In this document: positions 8,749 through 35,755 of the stretch, one piece after another | Layout: every line of letters begins with the position of its first letter | How positions within the stretch are numbered: the stretch's first letter is position 1 | Notes under the pieces: model-generated | Databases searched by the model: none | What the model was told of the DNA's origin: nothing | Seen by the model: the letters and a program-made list of their open reading frames with translations, nothing else | IMG/VR virus record: IMGVR_UViG_2778261152_000005 | Location: 1 to 57,958 of that record | Origin: a virus | Taxonomy: Duplodnaviria > Heunggongvirae > Uroviricota > Caudoviricetes | Direction: 5' to 3' (one strand) | Length of the DNA: 57,958 bases | Made by a program: the position numbers and the translations under genes

Positions 8749-8752
8749 AAGA

Positions 8753-16955: not shown

Positions 16956-16971
16956 GGTCGGAATCCTGACT
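16956..16971 (-). repeat. late-region palindrome, copy 1 (degenerate)
   Basis: ggtcggaatcctgact matches the 16-mer ggtcggaatcccgacc at 14 of 16 positions. It lies about 60 nt upstream of the holin start. Confidence 0.6.
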
Positions 16972-17051
16972 ATCCAATATGTTCACCCGGATCGAAAAAT
17001 GCTACTCTTTGTTTTTATATAACTTATGTTCAATCCATGGCGAGCTAAACT

Positions 17052-18041
17052 ATGAACCGTATTGGCTGGATCTCATTAACTAGAGTAATAGCAGTAACAT
17101 TTATCGTAATGCTGCATTCTGCCTCATTCTATTTCAATAATTTTGATATTGGTGTTTTTGGCTGGGAAGTTGGGAATCTTGGTAATGCGGTTAGTAGATG
17201 GGGGGTTCCAGTTTTCATTATGCTATCAGGGGCTTTATTACTAAATAATAACAATTCGAATGACTACGCCTCTTTTTACAAACGCAGGCTCTCTAAGATA
17301 CTTATACCACTTATTTTCTGGTCTATCTTTTATTCTGCGATATGGCTTTTCCAGAATAAAGGTGACGCCACTATTTACGAAGCTTTAATAAATATTATAA
17401 GTGGACATCCGTTCTATCATATGTGGTTTATGTATATGATTCTTGGACTATACGCATTTACACCTTTGTTCAGGAAAATTGCATCTGTAATAGAAGATAA
17501 AGAAGCAACTTACTTAATCACCACTGTATTTATGCTTTCTGCCGTATGGATAAGTAATAAATACATAGCTGATGCTCATGATCCATTGTGGTTTTTCTGG
17601 TTCATTCAATACATTCCGTATTATTTTGCGGGGTATTATATTTCAAAATCATCTAGAAACATAAAGCCGACTCTTCTATTAATTGTAACGATTATAACCG
17701 TAGCAGCCACTTTTATAGCCACACATTACGCCTCGGTACAGTTTGGTAAGACTCAATACTTCTACGAACCGTTATCCCCTTTCATTATTATAATGTCATT
17801 GTGTGTATTTTGTTTATTCAAAAGGTGGAATTCAGGATTCTCCGACTCTCTCGCAAATTTAAGTTTAGGTGTTTATTTAATTCACCCTTTCTTTTTGCTG
17901 GCCTTCTTTAAGGTGTTTAAGGGGTTTGCAATGTCGTGGCCTCTTATGGGTTTTATTTGTGCGTGGATTATTTGCACAGTACTGTCTTTTGCTTCGACCT
18001 TCATTATCAAAAAAGTTAAATATTTAAATGTGATAGTGTAG
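17052..18041 (+). CDS. acyltransferase-3 family integral membrane O-acetyltransferase (O-antigen modification moron)
   Basis: 329 aa and polytopic, with the typical start …ISLTRVIAVTFIVMLHS… and about ten TM segments. It is AT-rich and opposite in orientation to all neighbours. It is convergent with the tailspike gene. Confidence 0.8.
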   Translation: MNRIGWISLTRVIAVTFIVMLHSASFYFNNFDIGVFGWEVGNLGNAVSRWGVPVFIMLSGALLLNNNNSNDYASFYKRRLSKILIPLIFWSIFYSAIWLFQNKGDATIYEALINIISGHPFYHMWFMYMILGLYAFTPLFRKIASVIEDKEATYLITTVFMLSAVWISNKYIADAHDPLWFFWFIQYIPYYFAGYYISKSSRNIKPTLLLIVTIITVAATFIATHYASVQFGKTQYFYEPLSPFIIIMSLCVFCLFKRWNSGFSDSLANLSLGVYLIHPFFLLAFFKVFKGFAMSWPLMGFICAWIICTVLSFASTFIIKKVKYLNVIV

Positions 18042-18051
18042 TTTATTAATG

Positions 18052-18077
18052 AAGGGGGAGCAGATAACTCCCCCTTT
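18052..18077. terminator. bidirectional rho-independent terminator
   Basis: aagggggag-cagataa-ctccccctt lies between the convergent acyltransferase and tailspike genes. Confidence 0.7.
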
Positions 18078-18093
18078 GGGTATTAGAAAGAGT

Positions 18094-20034
18094 TCAGACA
18101 AAATCAACTGCGGTATATCTAGATAAAAATCCACCCATACCCGAATATGAGATATTGGCGACCAAACTTACATCCGTAACGACAGTCGTAGAATTTATTG
18201 TCGTTGTGGATTTTTTTAATGTACCAGTCGCGGTTGTTACCTGCACAGCTACAGAACTAGCCCCCTGCTGGAAAACCTGCATATTGCCAATAAACCCACT
18301 ACCTTGCGCCATTCCAAATTTGCTGTATGCAGAACCACTCACTCCCATGTAGGGATAATGATATTTAGATAAATCGGCCTGCAATGAAACAGGATATGAG
18401 ATATTCACTGAATTTGCAGATGATAACATTGATAAATTACACCGCCAATGGATGTATTTACCTACTTGCCGGGCCTGAAGTGTATTTGTTACACTAGTGT
18501 TTAAATAGGTATTGTTTTTTGGAAAGTCTACCCATCCTGAATCGAACTGTTTAATTGGTGTCTTAATTGCAATCATCCCCCCGGCTAGAGCCCGAGGGCT
18601 ACCATCTGCACTTGGCTGAAGATATACGTCATCCCAAAGTAACTGAGCACTTCCCCCACCATCTAATGCGATGGCATGATGAAATCCTTCGTTTACACAT
18701 AACTCCTGTAGTTCAGAATATAAAATACCAAATGAAGATGATTGCCCTTGCACTTGAAGTATGCCGTAGTCTCCATTTGGGAAAACACCAAATACGGTTC
18801 TTGCGCTTATATCAGTTTGTGATGATACATCCTCATACGCCACACCGTTTTTAACAAGCAAATAATGCCAACCAAAACAACACCATGCACCTTCATTGAC
18901 ATAATCTTGTGCCGTCTTATTATCTGTATATGCCGCAATGGAAACTGAACCATCTTTCAATATCAATAAAGAGTAACGTCCATGTGTTTCTGTTTCGCCG
19001 CCGTCAAAATCCTGGTATGCAACCCCCCCTGATATCTGCAGCCCCCATGGTTTATACCCAACGCCATCTGTAATATTTGAATGCCAACCATCGCCATTAC
19101 AAATAGCAGGAGCTTTACTTTTTGAAGCATTCTCTGTTATTGTCATCGGCTGAACGTACATCACGCCAGATGAAAAATAAGGAGTATTACCATACTCCTT
19201 ATTAATATTTTGGGAGCCTTTCGGCACTGTAATAACGTGATAATAAACGCCACTGGAATGGATTTTCCTAATGCACTGTGATGACCCACTGCCATTCGTG
19301 ATATATCCACTTAAATTTTCAATCCCAAGGCTCAATTCATCAAGTTCATCCTGAACCGTTGTTCCATCAACAGTTCCAATTTTTGATGCCCCCGTTGGCT
19401 TTGCCAGTTCAATCATTACATCCGTTGCGGAACCTGACTGCGGTAAAACAGTTATCGGTTTACCCGCAGCGTTAAATGCCAGTAATTTGTTCGCACGTTG
19501 ATCAACTGGCGGGAGCACGTCAACATAGCTTTCTGGTACCCGAAGTGTGCGGTTTAAATTATTCTGCCCGGTTTGCTGAACATAGCGCTTTGTTGCCGCA
19601 TCCTGGTCGTTAACCGGATCGGCAAGCTCGGAAATCCGGTACCCTTCGGCATCAAACGGCCCACCAAACAAAGGTCGACGCAGTGCCAGTCCCAGATGGA
19701 TCCCATAACGTTGAATAGCCATCCATAGACGGTCGAAATCTTTATTTACCGTATCTGCAAGCAAGTCCCCGTTATCCTGATAATCAGTTAATCTGTAACT
19801 GGGGACAACACGTTCAATCATTACAACCGTGCCGGTAGCCGGAGCCGTGAGGAACGTAACATCACCGCCACCCACATTGCCTACGCCGGAGACAGAATAA
19901 CCGGACGTTAACTCCACACCGTTAAGTGTGACCTGAATGTCACTGGCACTGATAACATAAAACTCGAAAGGAAAAACGGTCGTCAGACCGTTGGCGTTGT
20001 AAATAATATAGGGCGTCTGGTTAGGTACCGACAT
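18094..20034 (-). CDS. tailspike with conserved podovirus N-terminal anchor and a C-terminal phosphodiester-glycosidase-like (NAGPA/DUF2233-type) domain
   Basis: The N-terminus …YIIYNANGLTTVFPFEFYVISASDIQVTLNGVELTSGYSVSG…DKDFDRLWMAIQ follows the epsilon15/phiV10-type tailspike head-binding pattern. The C-terminal part contains …FHHAIALDGGGSAQLLWDD…, the LDGGGS signature of that glycosidase family. Confidence 0.75.
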   Translation of the reverse strand: MSVPNQTPYIIYNANGLTTVFPFEFYVISASDIQVTLNGVELTSGYSVSGVGNVGGGDVTFLTAPATGTVVMIERVVPSYRLTDYQDNGDLLADTVNKDFDRLWMAIQRYGIHLGLALRRPLFGGPFDAEGYRISELADPVNDQDAATKRYVQQTGQNNLNRTLRVPESYVDVLPPVDQRANKLLAFNAAGKPITVLPQSGSATDVMIELAKPTGASKIGTVDGTTVQDELDELSLGIENLSGYITNGSGSSQCIRKIHSSGVYYHVITVPKGSQNINKEYGNTPYFSSGVMYVQPMTITENASKSKAPAICNGDGWHSNITDGVGYKPWGLQISGGVAYQDFDGGETETHGRYSLLILKDGSVSIAAYTDNKTAQDYVNEGAWCCFGWHYLLVKNGVAYEDVSSQTDISARTVFGVFPNGDYGILQVQGQSSSFGILYSELQELCVNEGFHHAIALDGGGSAQLLWDDVYLQPSADGSPRALAGGMIAIKTPIKQFDSGWVDFPKNNTYLNTSVTNTLQARQVGKYIHWRCNLSMLSSANSVNISYPVSLQADLSKYHYPYMGVSGSAYSKFGMAQGSGFIGNMQVFQQGASSVAVQVTTATGTLKKSTTTINSTTVVTDVSLVANISYSGMGGFLSRYTAVDFV

Positions 20035-20054
20035 GGCTAGAACCTCTGGCAGGA

Positions 20055-21665
20055 TTAATAATCGACTTCGACCTCATGGTCTCCGTCACTTAACTGCCAA
20101 TGTTCCCGCGACTGTCCGGTCGGAATCCCGACCACTTTACCGATACGCACAGGCGTTGCACTAACCGCCCCCGCACCTGAATCAATGAAATCGTCTGGCT
20201 GTGTTGTCAGCGCCGGGTTGAAGTCACGCATTTGATCATACATTGGGCCATCCAGAACATCTGAGTGTGCCCACAAGAAACTAGACGAAAGCGGCGCTTC
20301 AAATGCGTCGAGGATGCGCTTCTGCTTATTCGTAACGCTGAATTCCTCCCTGACACCGCAGCCAGTTCCCTTAAGCGCCTGACGCAACAGCTTACCGGCG
20401 AATGACCCGGGGCCGTTTACTTCCACGCAGACAACGGGGATCTGATATTTAAGGACAAGCTCTTTAATCTGTATTACCTGACCGCCAGTTATTTTGTCAT
20501 TGGAGTCGAACTCCGCAAGGTCGCCCGTTAACGCCTGACAGATATGCCAGTAGAGGTGGCCTCGCGCATCCGTGAGTACCAGAGAAAACGCTGAAGCGTC
20601 GGCCTTCACCTTACCTGTTGCAACATCCCACCAGGCAACGGCACCGACAATCTGCACGTTACCAAGCCACATCGACGCGGTGCGGTTTGCATAGCGAATT
20701 TCCGGATGGATGTTGTACTCCCGGATGCGCTCAGGATCGAGACGAACGTCGCCAACGGGCTTGCTGTGCAGCTGATACTGGCTATCCCACTCGTTGACCG
20801 TACGACATTCTTTTCGACGCAGCTCTAACTCGTCATGATCAAATCGCTCAGGCCAGGCGCATCCGGCATAGAAATCAATAACCGTATCCGGTGCCGCAGC
20901 AAACTCCACGCCGTCGGCAGTCAGCTTATAGTCAACGTCTTCGACCAGCAGGCTGGCCGCTTTATGGATCCCTGCAAAAACGTACTCTGGCCGGAACGGA
21001 ATAACATAGCGCAGCTGCGTGGCGTCTTTCGCCTCGATGCGCTTTTCTTTCTCAAACAGCTTTATGGTCAGACAGTCAGCGCCTGCCGATTCCATTTCAT
21101 CGTAGAGGCTGTCATGTGTGTGCGGCGTACCAATAAAAAGTTTTCGCCCGCCGGGGATCAGGATGTGAGTCTGCTCGCTCAGGCGATAACGCAACTTTTC
21201 TCGCGCCTCCGGCGTCTGAATATTGCCCGGGACTTCCACGTCGTCATTCTGGCACTCGTTAGCGCGGGCGCCGGTGACGTTCGACAGGATACCTTTTGCG
21301 AACATGCTGGCGTTACGCATATCCAGCGAACCATTAACCCACCATTGTTCGACCGTGCCGATCCCGTCGGGCAACATGCCTTTTGTCAGGGGGTGGTTGC
21401 GTAAAACGTTCTGTGTATCGCGGCTGGTTTTGCGCGCTGTGGAGTCCGATTCTGACTGGTGCAGAATACGGTACTGGCGATCGCAGTAGTATCGCCAGGC
21501 ATTATAGACGCCCAAAATAGTGGATTTACCGAAACCACGGAAACAGCGAAGCACCGCGAGGTTTCCGCGATGCTCCAGCCAGTGGCAGGCTTGATAATGG
21601 CAGTCCGGAACGTCCCAGTTCATCCGCTCCGCCCACATTAAAAAGAAGGCGAGGAACGAAATCAT
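20055..21665 (-). CDS. terminase large subunit
   Basis: 536 aa with a Walker-A-like RGFGKSTILG and a C-terminal nuclease-like region. It overlaps the upstream small gene by 4 nt. Confidence 0.8.
   Translation of the reverse strand: MISFLAFFLMWAERMNWDVPDCHYQACHWLEHRGNLAVLRCFRGFGKSTILGVYNAWRYYCDRQYRILHQSESDSTARKTSRDTQNVLRNHPLTKGMLPDGIGTVEQWWVNGSLDMRNASMFAKGILSNVTGARANECQNDDVEVPGNIQTPEAREKLRYRLSEQTHILIPGGRKLFIGTPHTHDSLYDEMESAGADCLTIKLFEKEKRIEAKDATQLRYVIPFRPEYVFAGIHKAASLLVEDVDYKLTADGVEFAAAPDTVIDFYAGCAWPERFDHDELELRRKECRTVNEWDSQYQLHSKPVGDVRLDPERIREYNIHPEIRYANRTASMWLGNVQIVGAVAWWDVATGKVKADASAFSLVLTDARGHLYWHICQALTGDLAEFDSNDKITGGQVIQIKELVLKYQIPVVCVEVNGPGSFAGKLLRQALKGTGCGVREEFSVTNKQKRILDAFEAPLSSSFLWAHSDVLDGPMYDQMRDFNPALTTQPDDFIDSGAGAVSATPVRIGKVVGIPTGQSREHWQLSDGDHEVEVDY
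20118..20133 (-). repeat. late-region palindrome, copy 2 (inside the 3' end of terL)
   Basis: ggtcggaatcccgacc, about 85 nt upstream of the tailspike start codon. Confidence 0.6.
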
Positions 21666-22000
21666 TTTTCGCCTTTCTGAAGGCGTTTGATAATGGCGGC
21701 CGCTTCACGTTCAGCCTCATTGACCCGCTGACCCAGTTCGAATTCTTCATCAACTTCACCGGGTTTCGGGGGAACTCCGCCGCGTGTATGCATACCAATA
21801 AGAGAATGCACCTTAATCAGCAGCGTCAGCGAAGCCGCAGCGTTCTTCTTGTCCCAGTAGCGGTCGCCGCGCTCCTGCTTTGTCAATGCATTGACGCGTT
21901 TATTACCGCCAGCCCAGTTGTCCGGGTCGGCTTCTTCGAGCACCACGTCAGTGAGTTTATCGCTCAGAGCAGTAAGGCGTGTTTTGTAATCCTGATGCAT
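21662..22000 (-). CDS. putative terminase small subunit
   Basis: 112-aa ORF coupled (ATGA overlap) to terL, the position of T7 gp18-like small subunits. No SD is visible at the start. Confidence 0.45.
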   Translation of the reverse strand: MHQDYKTRLTALSDKLTDVVLEEADPDNWAGGNKRVNALTKQERGDRYWDKKNAAASLTLLIKVHSLIGMHTRGGVPPKPGEVDEEFELGQRVNEAEREAAAIIKRLQKGEK

Positions 22001-22046
22001 AAAAAAGCCCCGTAGTGAATACAGGGCTATGATGGCGCGGGTTTGA

Positions 22047-22062
22047 GGTCGGAATCCCGACC
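22047..22062 (-). repeat. late-region palindrome, copy 3
   Basis: ggtcggaatcccgacc lies between the 968-aa gene stop (22065) and the small-terminase start (22000). Confidence 0.6.
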
Positions 22063-22064
22063 GA

Positions 22065-24956
22065 TTACCGCATACCAGGATCTACCTGATTTATCAGCGG
22101 CGCAATCCAGAAAAGATTGTTCCCTGGCAGCAGGGTACGCACGTTGTGCAGAACACGATCACCAGCATCGCCATTCAGCACTCCAGCGGTCACGTCGGTG
22201 ATGGTATCTAACAAGCCAAACGTCGGGCCGAGTGCGGAACCGATAAAACCACGGCTGGCGTAACGCGACTGTGTGCCGGTGCCGAGCAGCGCTCCCAGCC
22301 CGACCATACCACCGGAAGCTTTTTCAGCCATGTTGTTGTATTCCATTAGTGGGCCGAGAATGCCGGAGCGGTCAACACCCTCTATCACCAGTTTTTCAGG
22401 CGACCAGTCAACCTCACGCCCGTTAGCGGTTTCTTTCAGTGCATACGTCAGCGAGCCCAGCCCTATCTGGAATGCGGTACCGTAGTAAAACTGCGCCGAC
22501 CCTTCCTGTAACCCGCCCAGCGTTGCACGGTTGTATGACGCCGTAGCAAACGATTTAAACTGGAAAACCGTTTTGCCAAGCGGTGTGCTGGCCCACAGAG
22601 GCGTATCGCCAATGCCGGGGGTGATAACAGTATTGTTAACGTCTTTCAGCACAGCAGACTGAAACACGCCGGCGACATGCTGATCGTCCCATTTTTCAAA
22701 ATTACCAATATGCCAGCCGTCAATCACCTCGCCGTGCTTCTGAAATTCAGTGCGGATACGCGCGGCCATATTGTCGTTAATGCCGAGCTTCGCCAGGCGA
22801 CGGCCTGCGAACGAACCGGAAAGAATACCGTCAGACGTGATCATGCCGTTAACCGATTTGTTCATATCGTCGAAATGCCCCATCAGCGTGAGCTTGCCGA
22901 ACATATCGGTAACGCGCTCCATACCGGCTTCCACCGCTGTGGTACGTGCGGAACTGTCCACCAGATCGCCCATCGTACGCGCGCGGGTATGCAGTATTGT
23001 TTCCAGCCCCACGGCCATCTTTTTCTGTTCGGCTTTACTCGCAACCCATGCAGGGGATTTGGTTATCATAGCGCCATAGCCGCGCGTAACATTGCGGAAT
23101 CCGTTCACCATCACGCCACGCGCCAGATCAGGTATTGCCGACACAGTCATACCCCCCAGTTTGGTGGCAAAGTTAGCACTGCGCAGAAACGCACCGGCGC
23201 GAACAAAGAACGACGACGGATCGTCGGGCATACCGTACGTACCGACAAGGCGGTCGCGCAACGCAGTAATATCGCGCAGGTCGTTATCGCGGGCTTTTGC
23301 CAGTTTTGCCTGATCTTTGGGGCGGGAACGCATCAACGCGTCGTACTCGTCCTGGATATCCTTAAGCTGTTTTTCCAGCGTCTTGTTACCAAAAGTGCGG
23401 GTCAGCTCAACCTCTGCGGACGCTTCGCGAATATGGCGCTGCAGGACATAGTTGGCGTCACTCTCCAGGTAGTCTTTCATCAGGCGATCGGGAACACTGA
23501 GCGTACGGCCTTTGGTGCTGCCAGCAGATTTGACCATAAACACATTAGCGAAATCCTGCGGGATTTTGGCACCCACAATTTTGTTAATAGTGGCGTCCGC
23601 CGTAATTTCGGCCTCTTCTCTGGACATGGTTTTTTCGCCGCGCGACCACCAGTCAACCAACATGTCGCGGAATTTATCGCGCTCGTTGACGATTTTCCCG
23701 ACCTTGTACACGCGCGGGAAATAGCTGGTCTGCCCGATGGCCTTCAGTTCTTCATCCGGTGGTAACAGTCCTAGTTTCTGCTGTGCCACCTTCACACGGT
23801 TAACGACGGTGCGCATTGCCTGCGCCGTTTCCTGCACTACCGGGTTGGCATGTACATCACCGCTGCGCATGGCGCTACCCACTTCTTCACGGAACGACGC
23901 AAAACTCAGGTCACCGCCGTCAGCCTTATATTTTGCATACGCCTGTTTGTTGGTCACGACTACCGCTGCTTCTTCACGGCGCCAGCCGCGAACGCGGGTT
24001 TCCGCTGCAATGGGTGTTTCAATACCACGCGCATTCCCCTGGAGCGTGAAGTTATTCTCTGCCAGCTCCAGCGCTGTACGGCGTGCTGTTTTTGAAGGGG
24101 ATTCTATCAGGCGGGTGATCGGCGTCAGGTAACTGCCTGCCTTGCGCGCGGCCTTGCCGAATGGCCCCCCCGCAACCGGGGTTAAATCTTCGAGTGTCGC
24201 TTCGCGGATCCGCGCTGCGCCCACACTCCCCCCATCAGGAAGCGAAGCCGCAGCGGTATCCACCGGCGATGTTACGCTCATATTATCGAGCGCCTCCGCC
24301 ACTTCCCGCGTGGCCGCAGTGCGAACAGAAGGTGAGAGCGCCGCGCCAGCAGCAGCAAATACGCCACTCATCAACGCACCAGCTGCGACGTGGGAAGCAC
24401 TTTCGCCCCACGTACGAGTGATCTGCTGGTTATTCAGCGCAACTTCGCTCGCTGCGGTTGCAGCCGCACCGATTGCAACCTGTGACGCAATGCGCGCTGC
24501 CGCACCGCCCTGTGCGCCGGGGATAAACATAGATGCGACGGTAACCGGGTCGACAACGCCCGCAGCAATACTGGCTAACACACCCTCACCGCCAGCCTCA
24601 GAAAGCACGCGGCGGTCTTCGTTTTCATCGTCAATCTGCTGTTTCAGCCAGGCTGTTTCTTCCGGAGAGCGGGAATCCGCAAACGCCGCCCCCCATTGTT
24701 CGTACCCGTGCAGCTCGTTTTTATCCGTATATGGGTTATACCCTTCAACCGGCTCAAACTGCTTAGCCGGTCGGAACATCTGACCCAGCAGGTTATTCTG
24801 GCGGAATGCAGCGCCCCACACCGACGGCTCGTCCTGCTGAGGTGCCGGGTTGGTTCCTTCTGGCAATGGGACATCAAATCCGGATGATGCCGCCAGCACA
24901 TTACCTGCCGGGATGAATCCGTTATTCAATTCTTCAGGAGTGGCGTATACCGGCAT
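22065..24956 (-). CDS. large internal virion / DNA-ejection protein (T7 gp16-position)
   Basis: About 963 aa, last of three consecutive internal-virion-type genes. The start at 24956 forms a TAATG overlap with the upstream stop. The track ORF starts at 24971. Confidence 0.6.
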   Translation of the reverse strand: MPVYATPEELNNGFIPAGNVLAASSGFDVPLPEGTNPAPQQDEPSVWGAAFRQNNLLGQMFRPAKQFEPVEGYNPYTDKNELHGYEQWGAAFADSRSPEETAWLKQQIDDENEDRRVLSEAGGEGVLASIAAGVVDPVTVASMFIPGAQGGAAARIASQVAIGAAATAASEVALNNQQITRTWGESASHVAAGALMSGVFAAAGAALSPSVRTAATREVAEALDNMSVTSPVDTAAASLPDGGSVGAARIREATLEDLTPVAGGPFGKAARKAGSYLTPITRLIESPSKTARRTALELAENNFTLQGNARGIETPIAAETRVRGWRREEAAVVVTNKQAYAKYKADGGDLSFASFREEVGSAMRSGDVHANPVVQETAQAMRTVVNRVKVAQQKLGLLPPDEELKAIGQTSYFPRVYKVGKIVNERDKFRDMLVDWWSRGEKTMSREEAEITADATINKIVGAKIPQDFANVFMVKSAGSTKGRTLSVPDRLMKDYLESDANYVLQRHIREASAEVELTRTFGNKTLEKQLKDIQDEYDALMRSRPKDQAKLAKARDNDLRDITALRDRLVGTYGMPDDPSSFFVRAGAFLRSANFATKLGGMTVSAIPDLARGVMVNGFRNVTRGYGAMITKSPAWVASKAEQKKMAVGLETILHTRARTMGDLVDSSARTTAVEAGMERVTDMFGKLTLMGHFDDMNKSVNGMITSDGILSGSFAGRRLAKLGINDNMAARIRTEFQKHGEVIDGWHIGNFEKWDDQHVAGVFQSAVLKDVNNTVITPGIGDTPLWASTPLGKTVFQFKSFATASYNRATLGGLQEGSAQFYYGTAFQIGLGSLTYALKETANGREVDWSPEKLVIEGVDRSGILGPLMEYNNMAEKASGGMVGLGALLGTGTQSRYASRGFIGSALGPTFGLLDTITDVTAGVLNGDAGDRVLHNVRTLLPGNNLFWIAPLINQVDPGMR

Positions 24957-27676: not shown

Positions 27677-27678
27677 GG

Positions 27679-28146: not shown

Positions 28147-28148
28147 CG

Positions 28149-28598
28149 TTACACCTCTTTGGAATAAAGCAGACCGGTACGCGACAGACCGAGACGTGAA
28201 TACAAATCACCGGTGCGCTCTTCATGTACGCCTGTGGTGATACCCATATTGATAAGCACGGCGCCGTGTCTTTCCGCCCATGCAATGAATGATTTCGCAA
28301 GCCGCGGGGCAGCTGTGCCGCCGCGGTACTCAGGCGCAATAAAAAGCCCGTATTCAAACGCCATTAGCTGACGGCTAAACCATTGCTCAGCGATCCCGCC
28401 GGCCAGCCAGCCAATTACAGCACCTTTTTTTTCGGCCACCAGCAGACAGCCAGCAGGTGATGAAATAAGGGTGCGGGCGAGTTCAGCGCATTTTTCTTCA
28501 TCGAATGGCGAATTCTGTGAATAGCGGGACTCGATATACATCCGGGTTCCCAGTTCGATCAGCGCCGGGATATCCCCGGCCGTTGCGTTACGTACCAT
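28149..28598 (-). CDS. GNAT-family N-acetyltransferase embedded in the virion module
   Basis: 150 aa from the Met at 28598, 1 nt after the upstream TGA. The acetyl-CoA motif region is …LFIAPEYRGGTAAPRLAKSFIAWAERHGA…. The track ORF (to 28805) is an upstream extension overlapping the tubular B gene. Confidence 0.7.
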   Translation of the reverse strand: MVRNATAGDIPALIELGTRMYIESRYSQNSPFDEEKCAELARTLISSPAGCLLVAEKKGAVIGWLAGGIAEQWFSRQLMAFEYGLFIAPEYRGGTAAPRLAKSFIAWAERHGAVLINMGITTGVHEERTGDLYSRLGLSRTGLLYSKEV

Positions 28599-28599
28599 G

Positions 28600-30588
28600 T
28601 CAGCCCCCGTTACTGGTGAACGTGAAAATAATTGCGAGAAGGTGGAATGGCAGCGGCTGGCGCTGCTGGATAAGCAGGGTGTCTTCCCCACGCTCCCAGC
28701 CGAGTTTCCCCCAGAAATGATCGCCGGTGAAAAGTGGCGCTGGCTGGTTGAGAATTTTCGGACCGAACCGGCGGAACGGAATGACCTGGCCGTTGCACTC
28801 TGCACCAGTAGTTTCGAGAAAACGCATCGTCACTTCGCTCGTACGTTTCTTCGCGTTCTGGGTGGTACCTTCGGTAGTGGAAACCTCAGGTGATAGCGTC
28901 TCAATCGTACTTTCAAAGTGCAGGCCGATCTCAACGCTTTTTGCCTGGCGCGACAGGGTTATTTGACCTGATGAAACTGTGTATTGGGGCATAACAGCGC
29001 CGTCTGCCACCACATCCACAACCTGCCCCTCGAGGTGAGCAAGGCCTGACCACGTGGCGGAACCGGCGCTACTGCTGCCGGTCACTGCGGCATCGGTATA
29101 AAGATTGCTGTCGAAAACCTCAACATACCGAACGGTCTGGCCGTTTATCTCACGACGAACAATGGCATAAACCACGTCGTCGGTATCGGATGGAATTGTC
29201 GCCACCGATTCGAACGCCCCCTCAGTGACCTGACGTGACCAGGCAATAACATCCTGAGCGCGATCGATAGCCATCGTAACCGCAACACCATCAGCCCGAA
29301 CCATCCAGATAAATGCATCGGGTTGTTGCTGATATGCCATGTCCAGCACGCCACCAGATGTGATGTGCTCGGCCAGCACTGTCATGTCGTTAGCGGAATA
29401 GGAAACAAAGCTGTCGGGGTCGTACGCTACCGCATAGAGCTTACGACCCGCACGCTGCACAAACATGATTTCGGTACCAACGCGCACCGGACGGATCCCA
29501 TTACATCCGTACGGGCTTGGGTTTTTTACCGAAATATTTGTCGGTGTGATGGCCGCATCGTTACCCGAGGTGATCGTAAACTCACCGCCATAGGTCAGCG
29601 CAATAAGGGTATTCATCTGCGCCAGATGCACAATCGGGTTGAGCTGGTCAGAAGACAGCGTAAAGCTGATTGCGTCATCATCTTCGGTACCAATCTCAAA
29701 CGACAGATAAACGCCCGTCTCACTCCACCAGATTGTTTGCGGGTATTTGGGTGAACCCGCCAGCACAAGCCGCTGCTGGTAAAGCGTCACCGCGCCCGGG
29801 TAACCAAATTCATCTGTCCAGACCGTGTCTTCACGTGTCCACGCGCCCGGAGAGGCCGCCTGAGTTGCCGATAAATCGCTACGGATGGTACCGACGGCGA
29901 CCTGCGCGCTGGTGATGCTTTTTATCAGTACCAGTCCTTCGTTAATTCGCACGTACGAACCAACGTCCTGAGATACCCAGCCGGTTCCGGTAAAAGGGGG
30001 GCTGGAGTTATCACCCGGGTCTTCATCGCTCAAAGTGAGCGTGATTTCAGAGCCCACAAATTCTTTGACGGATGGCTTACACCATTTTTGCGGTGTATCG
30101 CGTACCTCGTCGAAAGGTTCAACGATGAACGGCGCAGGCTCAAGCACCCAGTCAGTTTGACCGCGTCGCTGCAGGCGGTAAGGTTTCACAGACTGATGCA
30201 CCAAAAACATGGTGTCAGCACCCTGGACATAATTCACAGCAGGCAACATATCAGCGGTATAGGGACTGGCTATTTCATACGGTGTGTTGTCACCGTTAAC
30301 CAGTTGCTTACCGTTCTGGTAAATGCGCATATAGCCGTCGCCAAACTCCAGCATATAAGCCTGAGAGCGATTGAATACGTAGGGGATAAGCCGGGATTTT
30401 TTATTGCCATACTTGGTAGCCGCCGCGAATCGGGTGCCGGGCCTGCGGATTACGCCCCCCTGCACCACCACCACGGCGTTTTCGATAATCTTTGCGCCGT
30501 TGGCATAGCGGGCAATATCAACACGCCCCATAAGACGCGGAGATACTTCCCCGGCGGTGAAATTGGTTTTAATGAGGTTCGCGCGCAT
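28600..30588 (-). CDS. tail tubular protein B-like (nozzle)
   Basis: 662 aa from the ATG at 30588, coupled to the upstream gene as TGAcATG. It begins MRANLIKTNFTAGEVSPRLMGRVDIARYANG… and occupies the T7 gp12 position. Confidence 0.6.
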   Translation of the reverse strand: MRANLIKTNFTAGEVSPRLMGRVDIARYANGAKIIENAVVVVQGGVIRRPGTRFAAATKYGNKKSRLIPYVFNRSQAYMLEFGDGYMRIYQNGKQLVNGDNTPYEIASPYTADMLPAVNYVQGADTMFLVHQSVKPYRLQRRGQTDWVLEPAPFIVEPFDEVRDTPQKWCKPSVKEFVGSEITLTLSDEDPGDNSSPPFTGTGWVSQDVGSYVRINEGLVLIKSITSAQVAVGTIRSDLSATQAASPGAWTREDTVWTDEFGYPGAVTLYQQRLVLAGSPKYPQTIWWSETGVYLSFEIGTEDDDAISFTLSSDQLNPIVHLAQMNTLIALTYGGEFTITSGNDAAITPTNISVKNPSPYGCNGIRPVRVGTEIMFVQRAGRKLYAVAYDPDSFVSYSANDMTVLAEHITSGGVLDMAYQQQPDAFIWMVRADGVAVTMAIDRAQDVIAWSRQVTEGAFESVATIPSDTDDVVYAIVRREINGQTVRYVEVFDSNLYTDAAVTGSSSAGSATWSGLAHLEGQVVDVVADGAVMPQYTVSSGQITLSRQAKSVEIGLHFESTIETLSPEVSTTEGTTQNAKKRTSEVTMRFLETTGAECNGQVIPFRRFGPKILNQPAPLFTGDHFWGKLGWERGEDTLLIQQRQPLPFHLLAIIFTFTSNGG

Positions 30589-30589
30589 G

Positions 30590-31153
30590 TCAGAACCTCG
30601 ACTCATACGTTGGGTAACCGCCAAGCTCTTCCGGTGGGTCTTCCTGACCATCGATGGCTTTTGCCTGTTTGAGCAGGAATGCGGCCTCTTGCGCCAGGCT
30701 ATCGCGCAGGCTGGTTGAGCCTGTCACCGCGTATGCCAGCTTAGACTGCATCATCATTTCAGCTACATCTACCAGCGCAGGACCCCAGGTAGACTCATCT
30801 TCATTGCGGAAGATATAGCGCAAACGAATCACATCAACATTTGCCAGCAGCCGGCTCCCTTCAATTCGATAATCGATATTATCCTGCTGTTCACCAATGG
30901 ACAGGACGCGAATATGGTCACCTGGTAAAGAAAACTGATAACCATATCCAAAGACAGGCGCTGCGCTTACAGGGGACAGTACAACGCGTTTTATTGCGCA
31001 GTTCCACGGGTGAGCACGGAGTAATTTATTACGGACAGTGGGGTAAAGGTTGGCGCAAAGACGGGCATGATCCGTGTCTTCGTCGAAATCATTTATCGGG
31101 TGAGCACCCAGCGCCAGAAGTGCGTTTGAACAGATAGAGACACTCGAAGTCAT
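30590..31153 (-). CDS. tail tubular protein A / adaptor-like
   Basis: 187 aa occupying the T7 gp11 position, directly after the capsid terminator. The N-terminal motif is ICSNALLALGAHPINDFDEDTDHARLCANLYPTVRNKLLRAHPW. Confidence 0.55.
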   Translation of the reverse strand: MTSSVSICSNALLALGAHPINDFDEDTDHARLCANLYPTVRNKLLRAHPWNCAIKRVVLSPVSAAPVFGYGYQFSLPGDHIRVLSIGEQQDNIDYRIEGSRLLANVDVIRLRYIFRNEDESTWGPALVDVAEMMMQSKLAYAVTGSTSLRDSLAQEAAFLLKQAKAIDGQEDPPEELGGYPTYESRF

Positions 31154-31169
31154 GGCATAACCTCAGATG

Positions 31170-31196
31170 AAAAAAGGCCGGGGGTACCCCCCGGCA
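31170..31196 (-). terminator. rho-independent terminator directly after the major capsid gene (analogous in position to T7 T-phi)
   Basis: The minus strand reads gccgggggg-tacc-cccggcc followed by tttttt. Confidence 0.7.
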
Positions 31197-31210
31197 AACA
31201 CACCAGCGGC

Positions 31211-32122
31211 TTAAACAATAAAATCGATGGCGACGACTTTTTTCTCGTTGGCACGACCAGCACCATAAGACGCATCAACAGAGATCTGAATGGTGTTGTT
31301 TTTATCGCGACGCGGACCGATATCGACGTTGTACTCAGCGCCGGTACCGAAATGCACGGCAGACTTACACCACGCAGCTGCGGTTTTAGTGGTTACGGCT
31401 GGGTCGCCATCGGTCACAGAGTCCAGTTTTTCGTATGCCAGCCAGTTAAAGCCCAGCCACTTGGAGGACACCGCACCTTCCTGCAGCATTTTTACAGCCA
31501 TGAAGTCAGCAGAGGTCAGCGTTGTGTCGCTGAGGATCTGCGTCAACATGTCGGCGTTGTACGTCATGTACAGTTCTTCGCCGTTCTGTTCATCGCACTC
31601 ATTACGGCGGAACATTGCTTTAGCGGCAATCAGCTTGGCTTTGGTCATGCCAGTGCCGCCAGCAACGATTTTTTGCTCGGCAGGGAGCGCAACAGGGGCA
31701 AACGCACCGCCGCTGGACGTTTTACGCAGCACGGTATCGAGCAGTGCGCGATACACAACATCATCTTTTTTGCGGTTGGCGGCCGCCAGGGTGAGCTGCA
31801 GATATGGCCCCTGCGGGTCAGCCAGCAGCTTACGCAGGTCACGCTTTTCAACGGGAACGAATACGCCGTAGTCAGCCATCAACGCATTACGGGTGCCAGC
31901 CTCTGGCAGGTCCCATACGGTGTCACCGAAACGCGTGGTAATCTGCGTCATTTCGATGGTACCCATATCGTTGATGGTGAACGCTTCACCGGTGATCATC
32001 CCACGGTCGTGTACCGCAGCCTGCAGGCGGGAATCCTTCTGCTGCGCGGCGATTTCGAAAGAATCATGAAACTGCGTGATAAACGCAGCGGTGATCATGT
32101 TCTTATTGGCATCAAATGACAT
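31211..32122 (-). CDS. major capsid protein
   Basis: 303 aa from the ATG at 32122, with a GGAG SD 10 nt upstream. It follows the scaffold gene and is bracketed by hairpins, as expected for the most highly expressed late gene. The track ORF extends to 32203. Confidence 0.7.
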   Translation of the reverse strand: MSFDANKNMITAAFITQFHDSFEIAAQQKDSRLQAAVHDRGMITGEAFTINDMGTIEMTQITTRFGDTVWDLPEAGTRNALMADYGVFVPVEKRDLRKLLADPQGPYLQLTLAAANRKKDDVVYRALLDTVLRKTSSGGAFAPVALPAEQKIVAGGTGMTKAKLIAAKAMFRRNECDEQNGEELYMTYNADMLTQILSDTTLTSADFMAVKMLQEGAVSSKWLGFNWLAYEKLDSVTDGDPAVTTKTAAAWCKSAVHFGTGAEYNVDIGPRRDKNNTIQISVDASYGAGRANEKKVVAIDFIV

Positions 32123-32271
32123 AACAATCACTCCAGAAAATATCGCCTGCTGGGTTGTCGGTTGCCCGGCCCGATTAACACAATGCGCGTGGCGCTTACG
32201 CACTGCGGGAAAATTCAGTTATCCGGCGTCCCCGCCGGGCTGGTTGTGGGGAGATTGTTAGCGAGGTGTGC

Positions 32272-32287
32272 GGTCGGAATCCCGACC
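32272..32287 (-). repeat. late-region palindrome, copy 4
   Basis: ggtcggaatcccgacc lies just downstream (minus-strand sense) of the 32295-32320 hairpin and about 150 nt upstream of the capsid start. Confidence 0.6.
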
Positions 32288-32294
32288 AAATGAA

Positions 32295-32320
32295 AAAGCC
32301 AGCTTGACCCGCTGGCTTTT
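32295..32320 (-). terminator. stem-loop with U-tract between the scaffold and capsid genes
   Basis: aaaagccagc-ttgaccc-gctggctttt is followed on the minus strand by a T run. Confidence 0.55.
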
Positions 32321-32340
32321 GGTGTTGTCGTCGTGACATG

Positions 32341-33183
32341 TCACGCTACGGTTTGGCCGCCGTAACGCTTCTGGTAGTACGCTTTGACCTGCGCGGATAC
32401 CCGTTCGTGATCAGCGTGTTTCGAGTCCATGTAGGCCGGGGATTTCATCAGGTCGCGGATGGTCTGCTGCTCTTCGAGATTCACATCACCGCCAGCAGGC
32501 GCATCTTCCTGCATTTCAGCGCCGACTTTAGCCAGCATACGGATAACCATCGGATTATTGCCGATCTCGTCAATGCGGCCTTTATCGGCGTCATCAGCCA
32601 GGGAATTAAACGCACGGAAAGCCAGACCGATGTTTTGCTTAAACTCTGCATCGGTCTTCCACACCTCACGCAGCTGTGTGGTGGCAGACTGTGAATCCAG
32701 CTCAGCGGCACCGCCTACCAGCTCAGGAGCACGCTGTGCGTATTCACCCAGGATGAAGCTCATCTGGTCGTTGGTGATGCCTTTAGCGTGCGCAGTTTTC
32801 ATAAAGCTCTGCATGCGCGGGTCCGCTTTGAACTCTTCCCAGTTGAATCCCTCGACCTCTACCTTAGGCGCATACTCATCTGACGTTTTCGGCGGCGCGT
32901 CGCCGCTACCCATGCGTTTTTCAAGGTGAGTGTAATTTTCCGCCAGTTTGCGGGCAGAGCTTTCAATACTGAGCTTTCCGTCTTCGCCCATAACGCGGAA
33001 TTTCTCAGGTATCCAGTCATTAGCCCCCGGCTCGCCTGCGCCTGCGCCGGTGCTGAGCAGAGAATTGCCAGAAGGTTCACCAGTACCCGGATTATTGCCG
33101 CCATCGTCACCACCTCCGTTACCGCCGCCCGGCTGTTCTGCGCCCGCTTCTGCGTTCATGAATAAGTGTTTAAGCTTCCACAT
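32341..33183 (-). CDS. scaffolding (capsid assembly) protein
   Basis: About 272-280 aa, acidic, with a Gly-rich N-terminus and a helical remainder. It lies between the portal and capsid genes. The start is either 33183 or the Met at 33159. Confidence 0.6.
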   Translation of the reverse strand: MWKLKHLFMNAEAGAEQPGGGNGGGDDGGNNPGTGEPSGNSLLSTGAGAGEPGANDWIPEKFRVMGEDGKLSIESSARKLAENYTHLEKRMGSGDAPPKTSDEYAPKVEVEGFNWEEFKADPRMQSFMKTAHAKGITNDQMSFILGEYAQRAPELVGGAAELDSQSATTQLREVWKTDAEFKQNIGLAFRAFNSLADDADKGRIDEIGNNPMVIRMLAKVGAEMQEDAPAGGDVNLEEQQTIRDLMKSPAYMDSKHADHERVSAQVKAYYQKRYGGQTVA

Positions 33184-33403
33184 CGTCTTCTACTCCATCG
33201 GCCTTGTTGATTTCGCGCAGGATGTAATCCAGTACGGATCGCTGCCCTGCCCTGTAACACGTTTCGCGGTCGCCCTCGGTACCGCCCGGGACATATGCCG
33301 CACGCCCAAAGCGGCGGGTTAATTCTTCCAGCACCTGAGAACCACCAGGCATTTCTTCGAAAATGCGCTTAAAGTCCTGAGGCGTAGCCTGTTTTATTCT
33401 CAT
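33170..33403 (-). CDS. small conserved protein between portal and scaffold (Bbp19-like)
   Basis: 77 aa, 4-nt overlap with the portal stop. The sequence and position resemble the small Bbp19-type protein of BPP-1-like podoviruses. This is from memory only. Confidence 0.45.
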   Translation of the reverse strand: MRIKQATPQDFKRIFEEMPGGSQVLEELTRRFGRAAYVPGGTEGDRETCYRAGQRSVLDYILREINKADGVEDDVEA

Positions 33404-35025
33404 TGGTTACCTGCCAGTCGTTGTCCTATTGCCGCGCCTGCGGTCTGTCCTGCTGCTCCTGCTGCCTCAGTGCCCGCCTGCATCATGAGTTGCTGCTGTG
33501 CGGCCTGCTGTTGTGCTTTCTGACGTTGGTCGCGGAGATCCGCCACCGCATCGGATGAGCGAATAACCTTCGCCGGAACGCCGAGCGCATCAGCCACAAC
33601 GCGCGTGGCCTCGTCGGTATCGATGAGATCAACAACGTCCTGGCTGATACCAGCGAGATTTGCCACATTTGCGCCGAGGCGCTCAATAGCAGTTACGTCT
33701 TCCAGCTTCTGGGCACGCGCCAGCGGGGAGATGTAACGCACGTTGAAATTGGCGTTTTGCAGGCTCTCAGGCGGCGGGGAGAAAACGCCAGCGCGGAAAG
33801 CGATGCCAAAGCAGCGCACCACAAGCAACTGGAGATATTCAGCCTGGAAGCGGCCATACACCGGGCCAAGCAACTGACGAATCAGTGCTACGCGCACGTG
33901 AACTTCGGTGGCGGTCATGGCTGGCCCATCCTGCGGTTGCAACTGGTCCGCCATCATGATTTTGCGGATTGATGCCTGCAGACGTTCTTCAGCGGTGAAA
34001 GCAACGTTGAAATCTGCGCCAGTCAGCAACGGTTTCATGCTGTCGGTGCTGTTCGCCACGATGATACGACGCGGGCCGACCTTGACCGTACGCGGGTTTA
34101 GTACGCCGTCGTCTTCGGCAATCCACATGCCGGAGATAGCCAGATCCTGCGCAGCTTTCTCCATGCGTTTGGTTTCGTTCAGCTCTTTGCAATCTGGCAG
34201 CGCGTCGTATACCGGTCCGATGCCGTAGGAGCCACCAGGGATTTTCATCCAGCGCGGAACGCAGCACGGGAATTCGTGATAGCCGGATTCGCGCACCACC
34301 TGCTTGTTAGTCACGTCGACGTTGAATGACGCAAAGCGCATGTTCTTCGCCAGACGGGCATCGACCATGTAGGTTTCGCGCGGGAAAATGCAGTGCAGGA
34401 AATCAAATTTATCGTCGGGCTTTTTCTTCGCCGCGTCGCGGATCTTCTCGCTGACCTTGTCCGCGCCGAATTCTTTGATGGCCTGTTCTGCGGTCAGCTG
34501 GTAGCGGCGGTATATCGTGTCCACAATGCCATCCTTGCGGGTGGACGTGACATAGCACTGCGCCAGCGGCCACTGCTGGAAGGTGTAGCCGCCCTCGTCA
34601 CGGTCCTCGTCGATGTACAGGACGAACCAGCCAGCGCATACCACGTCGAGGTTTGCCTCGTAGCCCTCTGCGTCAAAGTTGGCCGCATGGATGTTTTCCC
34701 AGACCAGCGTTGCGCACTCTGACAACCAGGCTTTGGCGTCGTCCGGCAGCGATTCGCTGTCGAGGTTCAGCCATTGCGCGTTCGCCGGGGTCATGCCGGA
34801 CATGAGCGCAGAGGCCAGCATGCGGGCGCTGTCGGTGGCGGTACCGTCCAGTAGCTTCGCCACCTTGTGTTTTGCGCTCTGAGCGTCGAGCACTTCATCA
34901 GAGAATCCCGCGCCGCGCAGCGGATAGGTGTAGTCATAGCACTCGCGCCAGACGCTTTCATGCTGCTGGCGGTTGGCCTTCAGCGTGTCGGAACGCCTAA
35001 TCAGCTTAACGGCGAGTTCATCCAT
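33400..35025 (-). CDS. portal (head-to-tail connector) protein, podovirus type
   Basis: 541 aa. The N-terminus …RRSDTLKANRQQHESVWRECYDYTYPLRG… is typical of T7 gp8-like connectors. It is the first large gene of the virion module. Confidence 0.75.
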   Translation of the reverse strand: MDELAVKLIRRSDTLKANRQQHESVWRECYDYTYPLRGAGFSDEVLDAQSAKHKVAKLLDGTATDSARMLASALMSGMTPANAQWLNLDSESLPDDAKAWLSECATLVWENIHAANFDAEGYEANLDVVCAGWFVLYIDEDRDEGGYTFQQWPLAQCYVTSTRKDGIVDTIYRRYQLTAEQAIKEFGADKVSEKIRDAAKKKPDDKFDFLHCIFPRETYMVDARLAKNMRFASFNVDVTNKQVVRESGYHEFPCCVPRWMKIPGGSYGIGPVYDALPDCKELNETKRMEKAAQDLAISGMWIAEDDGVLNPRTVKVGPRRIIVANSTDSMKPLLTGADFNVAFTAEERLQASIRKIMMADQLQPQDGPAMTATEVHVRVALIRQLLGPVYGRFQAEYLQLLVVRCFGIAFRAGVFSPPPESLQNANFNVRYISPLARAQKLEDVTAIERLGANVANLAGISQDVVDLIDTDEATRVVADALGVPAKVIRSSDAVADLRDQRQKAQQQAAQQQLMMQAGTEAAGAAGQTAGAAIGQRLAGNQ

Positions 35026-35028
35026 CAG

Positions 35029-35259
35029 TTACGCCCCCAGAGTGTTTTTCTGCTGCGCTGCCTGCGCGCCAGAGGACAGCAGAGAGCTGCCAGAATCAGC
35101 TGCACCCTCTGCACCACTGGCGAGAAGGGACGAGCCTTTCTTGCGCTTCTTGCGCGCTGCTGCATCTGCGTTTGCCGCTTTTGCCGCTGCGTCGGCAGCT
35201 GCATCCGCTTCGGCCTGCGGGTCGGTCTGTACGACCTTAGGTGCTCCACCTCCACACAT
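35029..35259 (-). CDS. small Ala-rich low-complexity protein
   Basis: 76 aa (MCGGGAPKVV…), ending 4 nt before the portal start. Confidence 0.4.
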   Translation of the reverse strand: MCGGGAPKVVQTDPQAEADAAADAAAKAANADAAARKKRKKGSSLLASGAEGAADSGSSLLSSGAQAAQQKNTLGA

Positions 35260-35271
35260 AGCGATCCCCTC

Positions 35272-35691
35272 TTAGCCCGGAACGTGCCAGCCGTGCTCAG
35301 TCAGAACGGGCTTACCCGTAACCGGCTGGCGTTTGCCCTCGTCGTTCGTCACGTAGCCCAGCGGCGCGGCAGGCTCCGCCGTGGTGGCTTTTTTGACGAG
35401 CTGGAGGAATTCGATATTGTCAGTGAGCTGCTGGTCAGCCAGGTCGGTGTACCCCAGCGTTTCAAAGCGGGCGATGATGGCCGCGCCCTGCTCGTTGATG
35501 GTACCCAGCAGAGTATTGCGCTCAGTGAGCGCGGCATCGTCCAGCAGGGTAGAAACGCGCTGCTGGATAACTTCCTGCTCAGCACGGGGCTTCTCCTGCG
35601 TTACGCCTTCACCGGTGGTGTCTGAAATCAGGTCTGCGCCCGTTGCGGACTCCTGCCCGGGGACTTCAACAGTTTTCTTCTGTCGTGCCAT
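35272..35691 (-). CDS. hypothetical protein, first gene of the late operon
   Basis: 139 aa from the ATG at 35691, with an AGGAG SD 9 nt upstream. The track ORF's extra 22 codons cover the palindrome motif and are probably not translated. Confidence 0.5.
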   Translation of the reverse strand: MARQKKTVEVPGQESATGADLISDTTGEGVTQEKPRAEQEVIQQRVSTLLDDAALTERNTLLGTINEQGAAIIARFETLGYTDLADQQLTDNIEFLQLVKKATTAEPAAPLGYVTNDEGKRQPVTGKPVLTEHGWHVPG

Positions 35692-35739
35692 TGTGGTGGC
35701 TCCTGTGATGATTGAGCCGTAAGTGTGAAACGAGGTCGC

Positions 35740-35755
35740 GGTCGGAATCCCGACC
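35740..35755 (-). repeat. late-region palindrome, copy 5
   Basis: ggtcggaatcccgacc, about 50 nt upstream of the first late-gene start. Confidence 0.6.

Follow-up and report, generated by a model that had tools for sequence, protein, structure and literature searches.

A repeated 16-nucleotide motif and a small helix-turn-helix protein as candidates for late-gene control in a temperate podophage

The late region and its repeated motif

The stretch of DNA analysed here, positions 1 to 57,958 of the IMG/VR viral record IMGVR_UViG_2778261152_000005 (57,958 nucleotides (nt), in the following called the window), carries a temperate podophage in whose late half a motif of 16 nt, GGTCGGGATTCCGACC, recurs on the late-gene strand. 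The late half contains a virion module with an order and content like those of T7 and SP6. Its first operon encodes a protein of 139 amino acids (aa), a 76-aa protein, the portal protein (33400-35025), a Bbp19-like protein (33170-33403) and the scaffold protein (32341-33183). The capsid gene lies at 31211-32122, a terS-like gene at 21662-22000, terL at 20055-21665 and the tailspike gene at 18094-20034. Further late genes code for tail tube and nozzle proteins, a gp14-like protein, an internal protein with an SLT domain, a 968-aa internal protein, the holin, a lysozyme and an Rz-like protein. The relation of the structural module to T7 is visible in a T7 tail-fibre N-terminal domain, a T7-type terminase, the gp14-like protein and the SLT internal protein. 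The early half encodes a LexA-like CI repressor (39007-39681), a VapE primase-helicase, a DUF2800 protein, an Enc34-type SSB, a family A DNA polymerase and an SNF2 helicase. The rightward early operon ends with a gene for a 91-aa helix-turn-helix (HTH) protein of the XRE/Cro type (35969-36244, minus strand), 213 nt upstream of the first copy of the motif.

Scanning of the window revealed GGTCGGGATTCCGACC on the minus strand four times without mismatch (35740-35755, 32272-32287, 22047-22062, 20118-20133) and a fifth copy, AGTCAGGATTCCGACC, at 16956-16971 on the same strand, which differs from the others by two mismatches and had been given as ggtcaggattccgacc in the initial annotation. All five copies are co-oriented with the late genes. 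By chance 0.01 matches are expected, the observed number was reached in none of 100 shuffled windows, and no additional copy appeared in the 58-kb window when up to three mismatches were permitted. A weight matrix that covers the motif and the -10 region assigns 33-55 bits to the five sites, while all other positions of the 58-kb window stay below 5 bits, i.e. at the noise level (best shuffle 4.4 bits). The early half, the low-GC element described below and the chromosome flank are free of copies, and the initial count of five copies in one orientation as well as the stated absence from the early half, an element A and the chromosome flank agree with the scan. The feature is strongly non-random and conserved. 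Its description as a perfect palindrome has to be revised, because the reverse complement of GGTCGGGATTCCGACC is GGTCGGAATCCCGACC and differs at the two central bases. The motif is an imperfect palindrome, in which 6-bp arms flank a GATT centre, and its orientation can be defined because this centre is asymmetric.

The five sites are distributed over the late region as follows, with the -10 hexamers aligned on the A and T that are conserved throughout the family. Copy 1 (35740-35755), the predicted promoter of the first late operon, is followed by the hexamer CACACT (35722-35727) and 48 nt on by the ATG at 35691; it scores 47.9 bits. Copy 2 (32272-32287), the predicted capsid promoter, has the hexamer AACAAT (32254-32259), an ATG at 32122, 149 nt on, and a score of 54.5 bits. 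Copy 3 (22047-22062) begins 2 nt past the stop codon of the gene for the 968-aa internal virion protein and represents the predicted promoter for terS and terL, with CATCAT at 22029-22034, the ATG at 22000, 46 nt on, and 44.8 bits. Copy 4 (20118-20133), the predicted tailspike promoter, is situated within the 3' end of terL, 63 nt ahead of its stop codon, where it reads VVGIPTGQ (the motif codons being VVGIPT), as was recognised before; GAACAT follows at 20100-20105 and the ATG at 20034, 83 nt on, with 43.6 bits. Copy 5 (16956-16971) would serve the lysis cassette of holin, lysozyme and Rz-like genes and is followed by TAACCT (16938-16943) and the ATG at 16897, 58 nt on, with 32.6 bits. The measured distances of 46-149 nt to the downstream genes match those of the initial annotation, which had also noticed -10-like hexamers about 12 nt downstream; their presence stands, only the second one was misplaced by one base and is correctly AACAAT.

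Another sequence was seen in the 5' leader of the capsid gene. A degenerate motif-like stretch, GGCCGGGCAACCGACA, is located at 32156-32171 on the minus strand with GATATT (32139-32144) 11 nt later, and it is kept as GGCCGGGAAACCGACA in many relatives. It does not score in the weight-matrix scan and may, judged from its sequence, be a weak proximal capsid promoter.

Promoter-like sequences at a fixed distance

For the analysis of the surrounding sequence, 160 distinct sites from an exact-pattern scan of relatives were aligned on the motif. Counted from the motif start, A is found at +29 in 95%, A at +32 in 66% and T at +33 in 94% of these sites, and together they give the hexamer nAnnAT, separated from the motif by exactly 12 nt. 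The consensus of the motif is RGTCRG-GAWH-CYGACC, the 12-nt spacer to the hexamer is rich in G+C, an A/T-rich tetranucleotide lies just upstream of the motif, and C/A/A is enriched at +41 to +43, about 8 nt past the hexamer. This arrangement is predicted to be a sigma-70 -10 element with A-11 and T-7, followed by a pyrimidine-A (YA) start. A-11 and T-7 are the most important bases of the sigma-70 -10 element, and both are present at all five copies in the window.

Counted back from the -10 element, the motif spans about -40 to -25 and thus covers the place of a -35 element. At a spacing of 16-18 bp the corresponding positions (GGATTC, GGGATT, GATTCC) match TTGACA at none or one of six bases. 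An extended -10 (TG) does not exist at the motif sites, the -10 hexamers are weak with three to four of six consensus matches, and a scan for consensus sigma-70 promoters found none at the start of any late gene block. The combination of a -10 element with A-11 and T-7 at fixed distance and the lack of both a -35 and an extended -10 is that of activator-dependent sigma-70 late promoters.

Selection on the DNA sequence

The initial annotation had considered a transcribed RNA element with a 6-bp stem as an alternative to a binding site for a late activator. Among 205 distinct sites, all six Watson-Crick pairs are kept in 112 (55%), and in the remaining 45% pairing in the stem is lost and not restored by compensating changes. 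Among the sites, 27% have an A.C mismatch at pair 1-16 and 24% have one at pair 5-12; positions 5 and 12 vary independently, with all four combinations being seen (Fisher p=0.37). In YeP4, four of the five sites read RGTCRGGAAACCGAAY, which corresponds to a G.A mismatch at pair 2-15. The consensus 16-mer folds as RNA with -9.5 kcal/mol (z = -3.1), while the AGUCAG variant of the holin site in the window reaches -2.1 kcal/mol and is no better than shuffled sequences. No Rfam match at the gathering threshold was obtained anywhere in the window. The RNA alternative is therefore unsupported by these uncompensated broken pairs, the weak fold of the variant and the missing Rfam match. The pattern of variation is that of degenerate half-sites (RGTCRG and its complement) in a double-stranded DNA site, unlike a conserved stem.

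The copy inside terL permits an independent view on selection. Among 37 distinct terL contexts, five of the six third-codon positions inside the motif, namely the five after the first, are invariant, and the mean third-position entropy is 0.16 bit inside the motif versus 1.10 bit at neighbouring synonymous sites (Mann-Whitney p=5e-4). The third positions forming the A and T of the -10 element of this copy are invariant as well. This synonymous invariance indicates that the DNA itself is under selection beyond the requirements of the protein.

Conservation in related phages

The closest relatives comprise the E. coli prophage L001, which is 85% identical, the E. coli prophage L002 with an unrelated lambdoid early module, and the Yersinia phages YeP4-6. 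L001, L002 and YeP4 carry five copies each, at the same five positions as the phage in the window, and L001 and L002 also have the AGTCAG variant of copy 5 at their holin sites. Scanning IMG/VR for the exact pattern yielded more than 119 stretches with the motif, mostly viral contigs of about 35-37 kb, in many of which the spacing of about 1.93 kb between the terS and terL copies recurs. Nearly all of 107 loci with the HTH gene have one motif copy in the interval from 33 nt ahead of the HTH stop codon to about 700 nt past it, and in relatives among these loci a second copy is found 3.4-5 kb downstream of the HTH gene, ahead of the capsid gene.

In distant clades, where the HTH proteins are about 30-44% identical and the GC content is 0.60-0.68, the outer arms of the motif are changed and the core CRGGA is kept. 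Examples are TAGCGGGATTCCGCGC (L208), two sites with GTACGGGATTCCG... (L212), two sites with AGTCGGGAWTCCG... (L213) and GGTCAGGAACGCTGGG (L214), in all of which C4, G6, G7 and A8 as well as a distance of 11-12 nt to the -10 element are kept. The limit of the system is marked by BPP-1, a phage with a distantly related portal and a different gene order, which has neither the HTH protein nor the motif. P0140 sits in a different, non-podophage element that shows no clear motif, and a search for relatives of P0053 yielded none. The first late site of many relatives, including L025, L120, L145-L147, L158, L162 and L163, carries a true 16-bp palindrome with a GATC centre, GGTCGGGATCCCGACC, which is missing from the window. 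Since GATC is a Dam site, the first late promoter of these phages could be affected by Dam methylation.

The 91-aa helix-turn-helix protein

The 91-aa protein matches phrog_16553 over its full length; otherwise, only weak and generic HTH matches were obtained. Searches gave no NCBIfam family and no relatives in the PDB by sequence, a viral fold library gave nothing but XRE proteins that are unnamed or generic, and searches of Pfam, NCBIfam and the PDB for homology to the late regulators Ogr/Delta, Mor/C, Lpa and Q yielded nothing beyond weak generic HTH matches. The protein shows the helical bundle with a canonical helix-turn-helix of the XRE/Cro-C1 fold. It belongs to an unnamed family of proteins with roughly 80-100 aa, which forms 799 clusters at 50% identity. 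In the open-access literature, we found neither a function for this protein family nor a description of the motif.

In all 93 loci that carry the first late gene with at least 1200 nt upstream, the HTH gene is located directly upstream of this gene, and the same placement holds in 15 of 15 loci that were retrieved by the motif and not by the protein. Upstream of the HTH gene at least three types of early modules were found (VapE-type, Ref/lambdoid and other). The HTH proteins of the window and L002 are 60% identical despite their otherwise unrelated early genes, which together with the varied early modules indicates that the HTH gene travels with the late module and the motif. The regulator gene is placed for expression before the late genes and is inherited with the sites. 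The initial annotation had named the 91-aa protein as candidate for a phage activator acting at the motif. The comparative evidence favours this assignment, because a sigma-70 -10 element at fixed distance, the lack of a -35, a dyad-symmetric site and the position of the HTH gene in 93 of 93 loci come together, and activator function is what we infer from it. A simple code between the residues of the recognition helix and the motif variants was not found.

The gap of about 300 nt between vapE and the HTH gene contains a sigma-70-like promoter on the minus strand (36288-36315; TTAACG, 16-nt spacer, TAAAAT). Judged from this sequence, the HTH gene may have its own promoter besides read-through from the early operon.

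Some other assignments were considered and rejected. Weak PF10668 matches in 3 of 55 members had pointed to a small terminase or a role at the pac site for the HTH protein, which is discounted by the separate terS-like gene adjoining terL, and a pac-site role of the motif does not fit five copies each with a -10 element that a pac site does not need. GGAAC-like cores in some variants resemble sites for extracytoplasmic function (ECF) sigma factors; spacing and -10 element do not fit and 91 aa are too few for a sigma factor.

Terminator-like hairpins and the proposed division of the late region

Terminator-like hairpins accompany several of the sites. One with a T-run is located directly upstream of copy 2 (32293-32316, minus strand), and another lies upstream of copy 1. 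Directly after the capsid gene, the stop codon of which is at 31211, a strong G+C-rich terminator with eight G-C pairs and a T-run was found at 31177-31195 on the minus strand. The terminator-like hairpins before copy 2 and after the capsid gene make the latter a short unit of its own, which is presumably highly expressed.

A different arrangement exists at the terS site. A terminator-like hairpin with a 9-pair stem and a T-run (22006-22028, minus strand) starts at the base after the -10 element of copy 3 and ends at the terS ATG (22000). More than 12 distinct relatives keep this hairpin, with compensatory changes in its stem. Since the predicted start site of copy 3 falls into the 5' arm of the hairpin, RNA from the upstream operon could form the terminator and stop there, and RNA started at the promoter would lack this arm and continue. 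In read-through RNA the structure would in addition mask the GGGG that precedes the terS ATG. The terS promoter appears to be nested in a terminator, as deduced from the position of both elements.

Other features of the prophage and its surroundings

The gene for VapE is split in the window into two overlapping ORFs on the minus strand, 36554-38260 (568 aa) and 38146-38721 (191 aa, with a Prim-Pol match), and L001 has a single coding sequence for 725 aa. The split has the appearance of a frameshift; the prophage may therefore be replication-defective, or the sequence may be in error. Between the tailspike and holin genes, an Acyl_transf_3 gene (17052-18041, plus strand; local GC about 0.44) is directed opposite to the late genes; the corresponding acyltransferase gene of L001 is co-directional with them. 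It is probably an O-antigen-modifying moron. A separate promoter at the holin site would keep the expression of the lysis genes independent of this insert.

Outside the late region, 2922-14229 is a separate low-GC element (0.37-0.47), which adjoins chromosomal genes for a xanthine-dehydrogenase-like protein and XdhC (1-2332). It contains genes for a tyrosine integrase (2922-4286), a Dit-like tail protein (4367-5044) and a serine resolvase/invertase (13672-14229) as well as a 613-aa ORF without family match. The far end of the prophage (49384-55779) harbours a P4-type integrase with an arm-binding domain (49384-50646, minus strand), an IS1 transposase (51399-51902) and a 1182-aa ORF without Pfam match (52231-55779). 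According to its annotation, the L001 integrase sits at the lysis end and adjoins dusA. With its integrase at the opposite end, the prophage in the window appears to be differently arranged or integrated.

Interpretation and alternative explanations

Collectively, we propose that the five motif copies mark late promoters that depend on an activator and are read by the host RNA polymerase, with the 91-aa HTH protein as the activator, and assign a probability of about 0.6 to this reading, which is based on sequence comparison. The motif would take the place of the -35 hexamer, so that host sigma-70 RNA polymerase would read the late promoters only with the phage activator. Made from the end of the early operon, the 91-aa protein would bind the 16-bp dyad as a dimer, which is suggested by the distance of 10 bp between the half-site centres. 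The bound protein would replace the contact between sigma region 4 and the -35 element and recruit polymerase to promoters that are otherwise too weak. The late region would thereby be cut into five units for head assembly, capsid, packaging by terS/terL, tailspike and lysis. The copies, the -10 geometry, the lack of a -35, the DNA-level selection seen in terL, the poor conservation of the hairpin and the synteny, co-inheritance and fold of the HTH protein are computed features; initiation at the sites, binding by the HTH protein, activation rather than repression and contact with the polymerase are deduced from them.

Several observations weigh against this proposal. The motif is identical in some phages whose HTH proteins are only 27-42% identical (L087, L105), hence a more conserved reader is possible. 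Furthermore, the variation of the motif is asymmetric, since the enterobacterial clade varies in the left arm and distant clades lose the right arm, which is not predicted for a simple symmetric dimer. The collection of sites is largely phylogenetically redundant and was partly gathered with the motif itself as bait. PHROGs labels phrog_16553 as 'transcriptional repressor'. A dimer centred near -32.5 would occupy the normal place of sigma region 4, and the controller (C) proteins of restriction-modification (R-M) systems, which are the structurally closest characterised proteins, act as repressors when they occupy the -35 (PMC3351150).

These points feed into two alternatives that retain the sites as transcriptional elements. 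The promoters could be read by another factor, be it a host factor, the 139-aa or 76-aa product of the first late operon or an unrecognised sigma-like factor. We regard this as unlikely, even though the unchanged 16-mer next to diverged HTH proteins would fit and the most conserved bases, CRGGA at about -36 to -32, sit where a -35-type element is read: apart from the HTH gene, no regulator-like gene is invariably found with the late module across the early modules, the proteins of the first late operon lack a match to a DNA-binding family, and the -10 element is sigma-70-like and not ECF-like. Moreover, a shared host factor besides polymerase is implausible for hosts as different as enterics and organisms with a GC content of 68%. 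Repression by the 91-aa protein, for which the motif would be an operator and which would delay or damp late expression by occluding the -35, is quite improbable in our estimate. Promoters with a weak -10 element and neither a -35 nor an extended -10 should be nearly inactive alone, leaving nothing to repress, the end of the early operon is the usual place of late activators or antiterminators such as lambda Q, and the prophage already has a LexA-like CI repressor. It is the PHROGs label, the overlap of the site with the -35 position, where C-protein dimers repress, and a fold common to many repressors that speak for an operator.

Three further explanations dispense with an activator at a host promoter. 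An action of the motif as RNA, with its 6-bp stem and 4-nt loop serving as processing site, stabiliser or antitermination signal of the nut/put type, is distinctly improbable given that all six pairs are kept in just 112 of 205 sites, that A.C mismatches occur and positions 5 and 12 show no association, that four of five YeP4 sites have the G.A mismatch and that the AGUCAG variant folds with only -2.1 kcal/mol and Rfam gives no match. The stable fold of the consensus (-9.5 kcal/mol, z = -3.1), the position of every copy on the transcribed strand and the location of copy 3 just upstream of a terminator would suit such an element; however, the invariant distance to the -10-like hexamer would be left unexplained, and at copies 1 and 2 the hairpins are upstream and not downstream of the motif. 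A 6-bp stem is also too short for RNase III. The T7/SP6-like structural module and a punctuation resembling T7 class III promoters bring to mind promoters for a missed phage RNA polymerase, either T7-like or of the N4 type that reads DNA hairpins. This is very improbable, because neither the phage in the window nor L001, L002 and YeP4 has a polymerase-like ORF, and annotation of all large ORFs with Pfam and PHROGs gave no RNA polymerase gene, in line with the initial annotation of a phage lacking one. L002 has only the late module and the HTH gene in common with the phage in the window, the two large virion proteins match families of internal virion proteins, the hairpin is not conserved, and the conserved sigma-70 -10 element favours the host enzyme. 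Finally, a generic host repeat of the repetitive extragenic palindromic (REP) type or a packaging signal would account for a repeated imperfect palindrome and nothing more, and we give it an almost negligible chance: copies are missing from about 24 kb of non-phage DNA in the window and from the chromosomal flanks of L001 and L002, and those in the phages occupy homologous positions, always in the direction of the late genes and with a -10 element at fixed distance.

Significance

The activator-dependent late promoter is a long-established class of mechanism, hence the conceptual surprise is modest. Control of this type is well known, but descriptions are lacking for the regulator family, for the motif and its place over the -35, and for the putative promoter nested in a terminator. 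The genome papers of YeP4 and APSE do not mention promoters, and promoter-relevant literature on temperate T7-like podophages was not found among open-access papers. If the proposal is true, it would name the late-gene switch of widespread enterobacterial prophages, podophages of about 36 kb that are related to YeP4, and would provide a function for an unnamed protein family of about 800 clusters. It would also show how a virion module of the T7 type can be expressed in the absence of a phage polymerase, a point of relevance for the exchange of modules between temperate and virulent relatives. The 16-mer together with the -10 element represents a compact signature for annotating late operons and for predicting transcription units in such prophages, and the pair of regulator and promoter could serve as an orthogonal expression switch.

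A more general statement can be made only tentatively, and we place it somewhat below even odds: an unnamed XRE-like family would act as a -35 substitute, as a dimer on a conserved CRGGA-centred dyad at about -40 to -25, and in this way let the host RNA polymerase transcribe the T7/SP6-like modules of temperate podophages that lack a polymerase, the putative terminator-nested terS promoter included.

Comparison with known systems

The proposed promoters belong to the same functional class as the activator-dependent late promoters served by P1 Lpa (together with SspA), P2 Ogr and P4 Delta, and Mu C and Mor. P2/P4 and Mu share the layout of activator-dependent late promoters using the host polymerase. 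The activator sites lie at about -22 in P1, -55 in P2 and -43.5 in Mu, compared with about -32.5 here. No relation by sequence could be detected between the 91-aa protein and Lpa, Ogr/Delta, C or Mor. In P1, scattered late promoters possess, as proposed here, a sigma-70 -10 element, no functional -35, a phage element at fixed distance and a small phage activator that is produced beforehand (PMC8201110).

With respect to geometry, the CII protein of lambda and P22 comes near to the inferred arrangement, in which the half-site centres are close to -37.5 and -27.5. The CII blocks straddle the -35 region of promoters without a good -35. CII is a 97-aa HTH activator of pRE, pI and paQ that recognises TTGCN6TTGC, with the two blocks 10 bp apart (PMC2629481). 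The CII sites are direct repeats, bound by a tetramer for the establishment of lysogeny, whereas the motif described here is an inverted repeat ahead of late genes, and CII matches the 91-aa protein neither by sequence nor among the top structural matches. Replacement of the -35 by an activator site with retention of the sigma-70 -10 is also known from the middle promoters of T4, which depend on MotA/AsiA, and from the pho boxes of PhoB. The centre of the MotA box is near -30, and 10 bp separate the pho box from the -10 downstream of it. Both proteins belong to families unrelated to the 91-aa protein, the pho box is a direct repeat, and a co-factor like AsiA was not identified here.

In structural terms, the nearest proteins are the R-M controller proteins C.EcoT38IS, C.Kpn2I, C.AhdI and C.Esp1396I with 13-16% sequence identity. 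Their C-boxes (GACT/AGTC around TATA) are unrelated in sequence to the motif, activation comes from a C-protein dimer bound upstream of the -35 and repression from the one that covers the -35, and R-M genes do not exist beside the HTH gene, the neighbours of which are phage replication and virion genes.

The punctuation of the late region corresponds to that by the class III promoters of T7 and SP6, with a promoter before head, capsid, packaging and tail-fibre genes, and the terminator after the capsid gene has the same position as T-phi after gene 10 of T7. The T7 promoter is a contiguous block from -17 to +6, whereas the block described here is located 25-40 nt ahead of the predicted start, in combination with a sigma-70 -10 element and in a phage without its own polymerase. 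If the more general statement on the XRE-like family holds, the arrangement would represent the host-polymerase counterpart of the promoter punctuation in T7.

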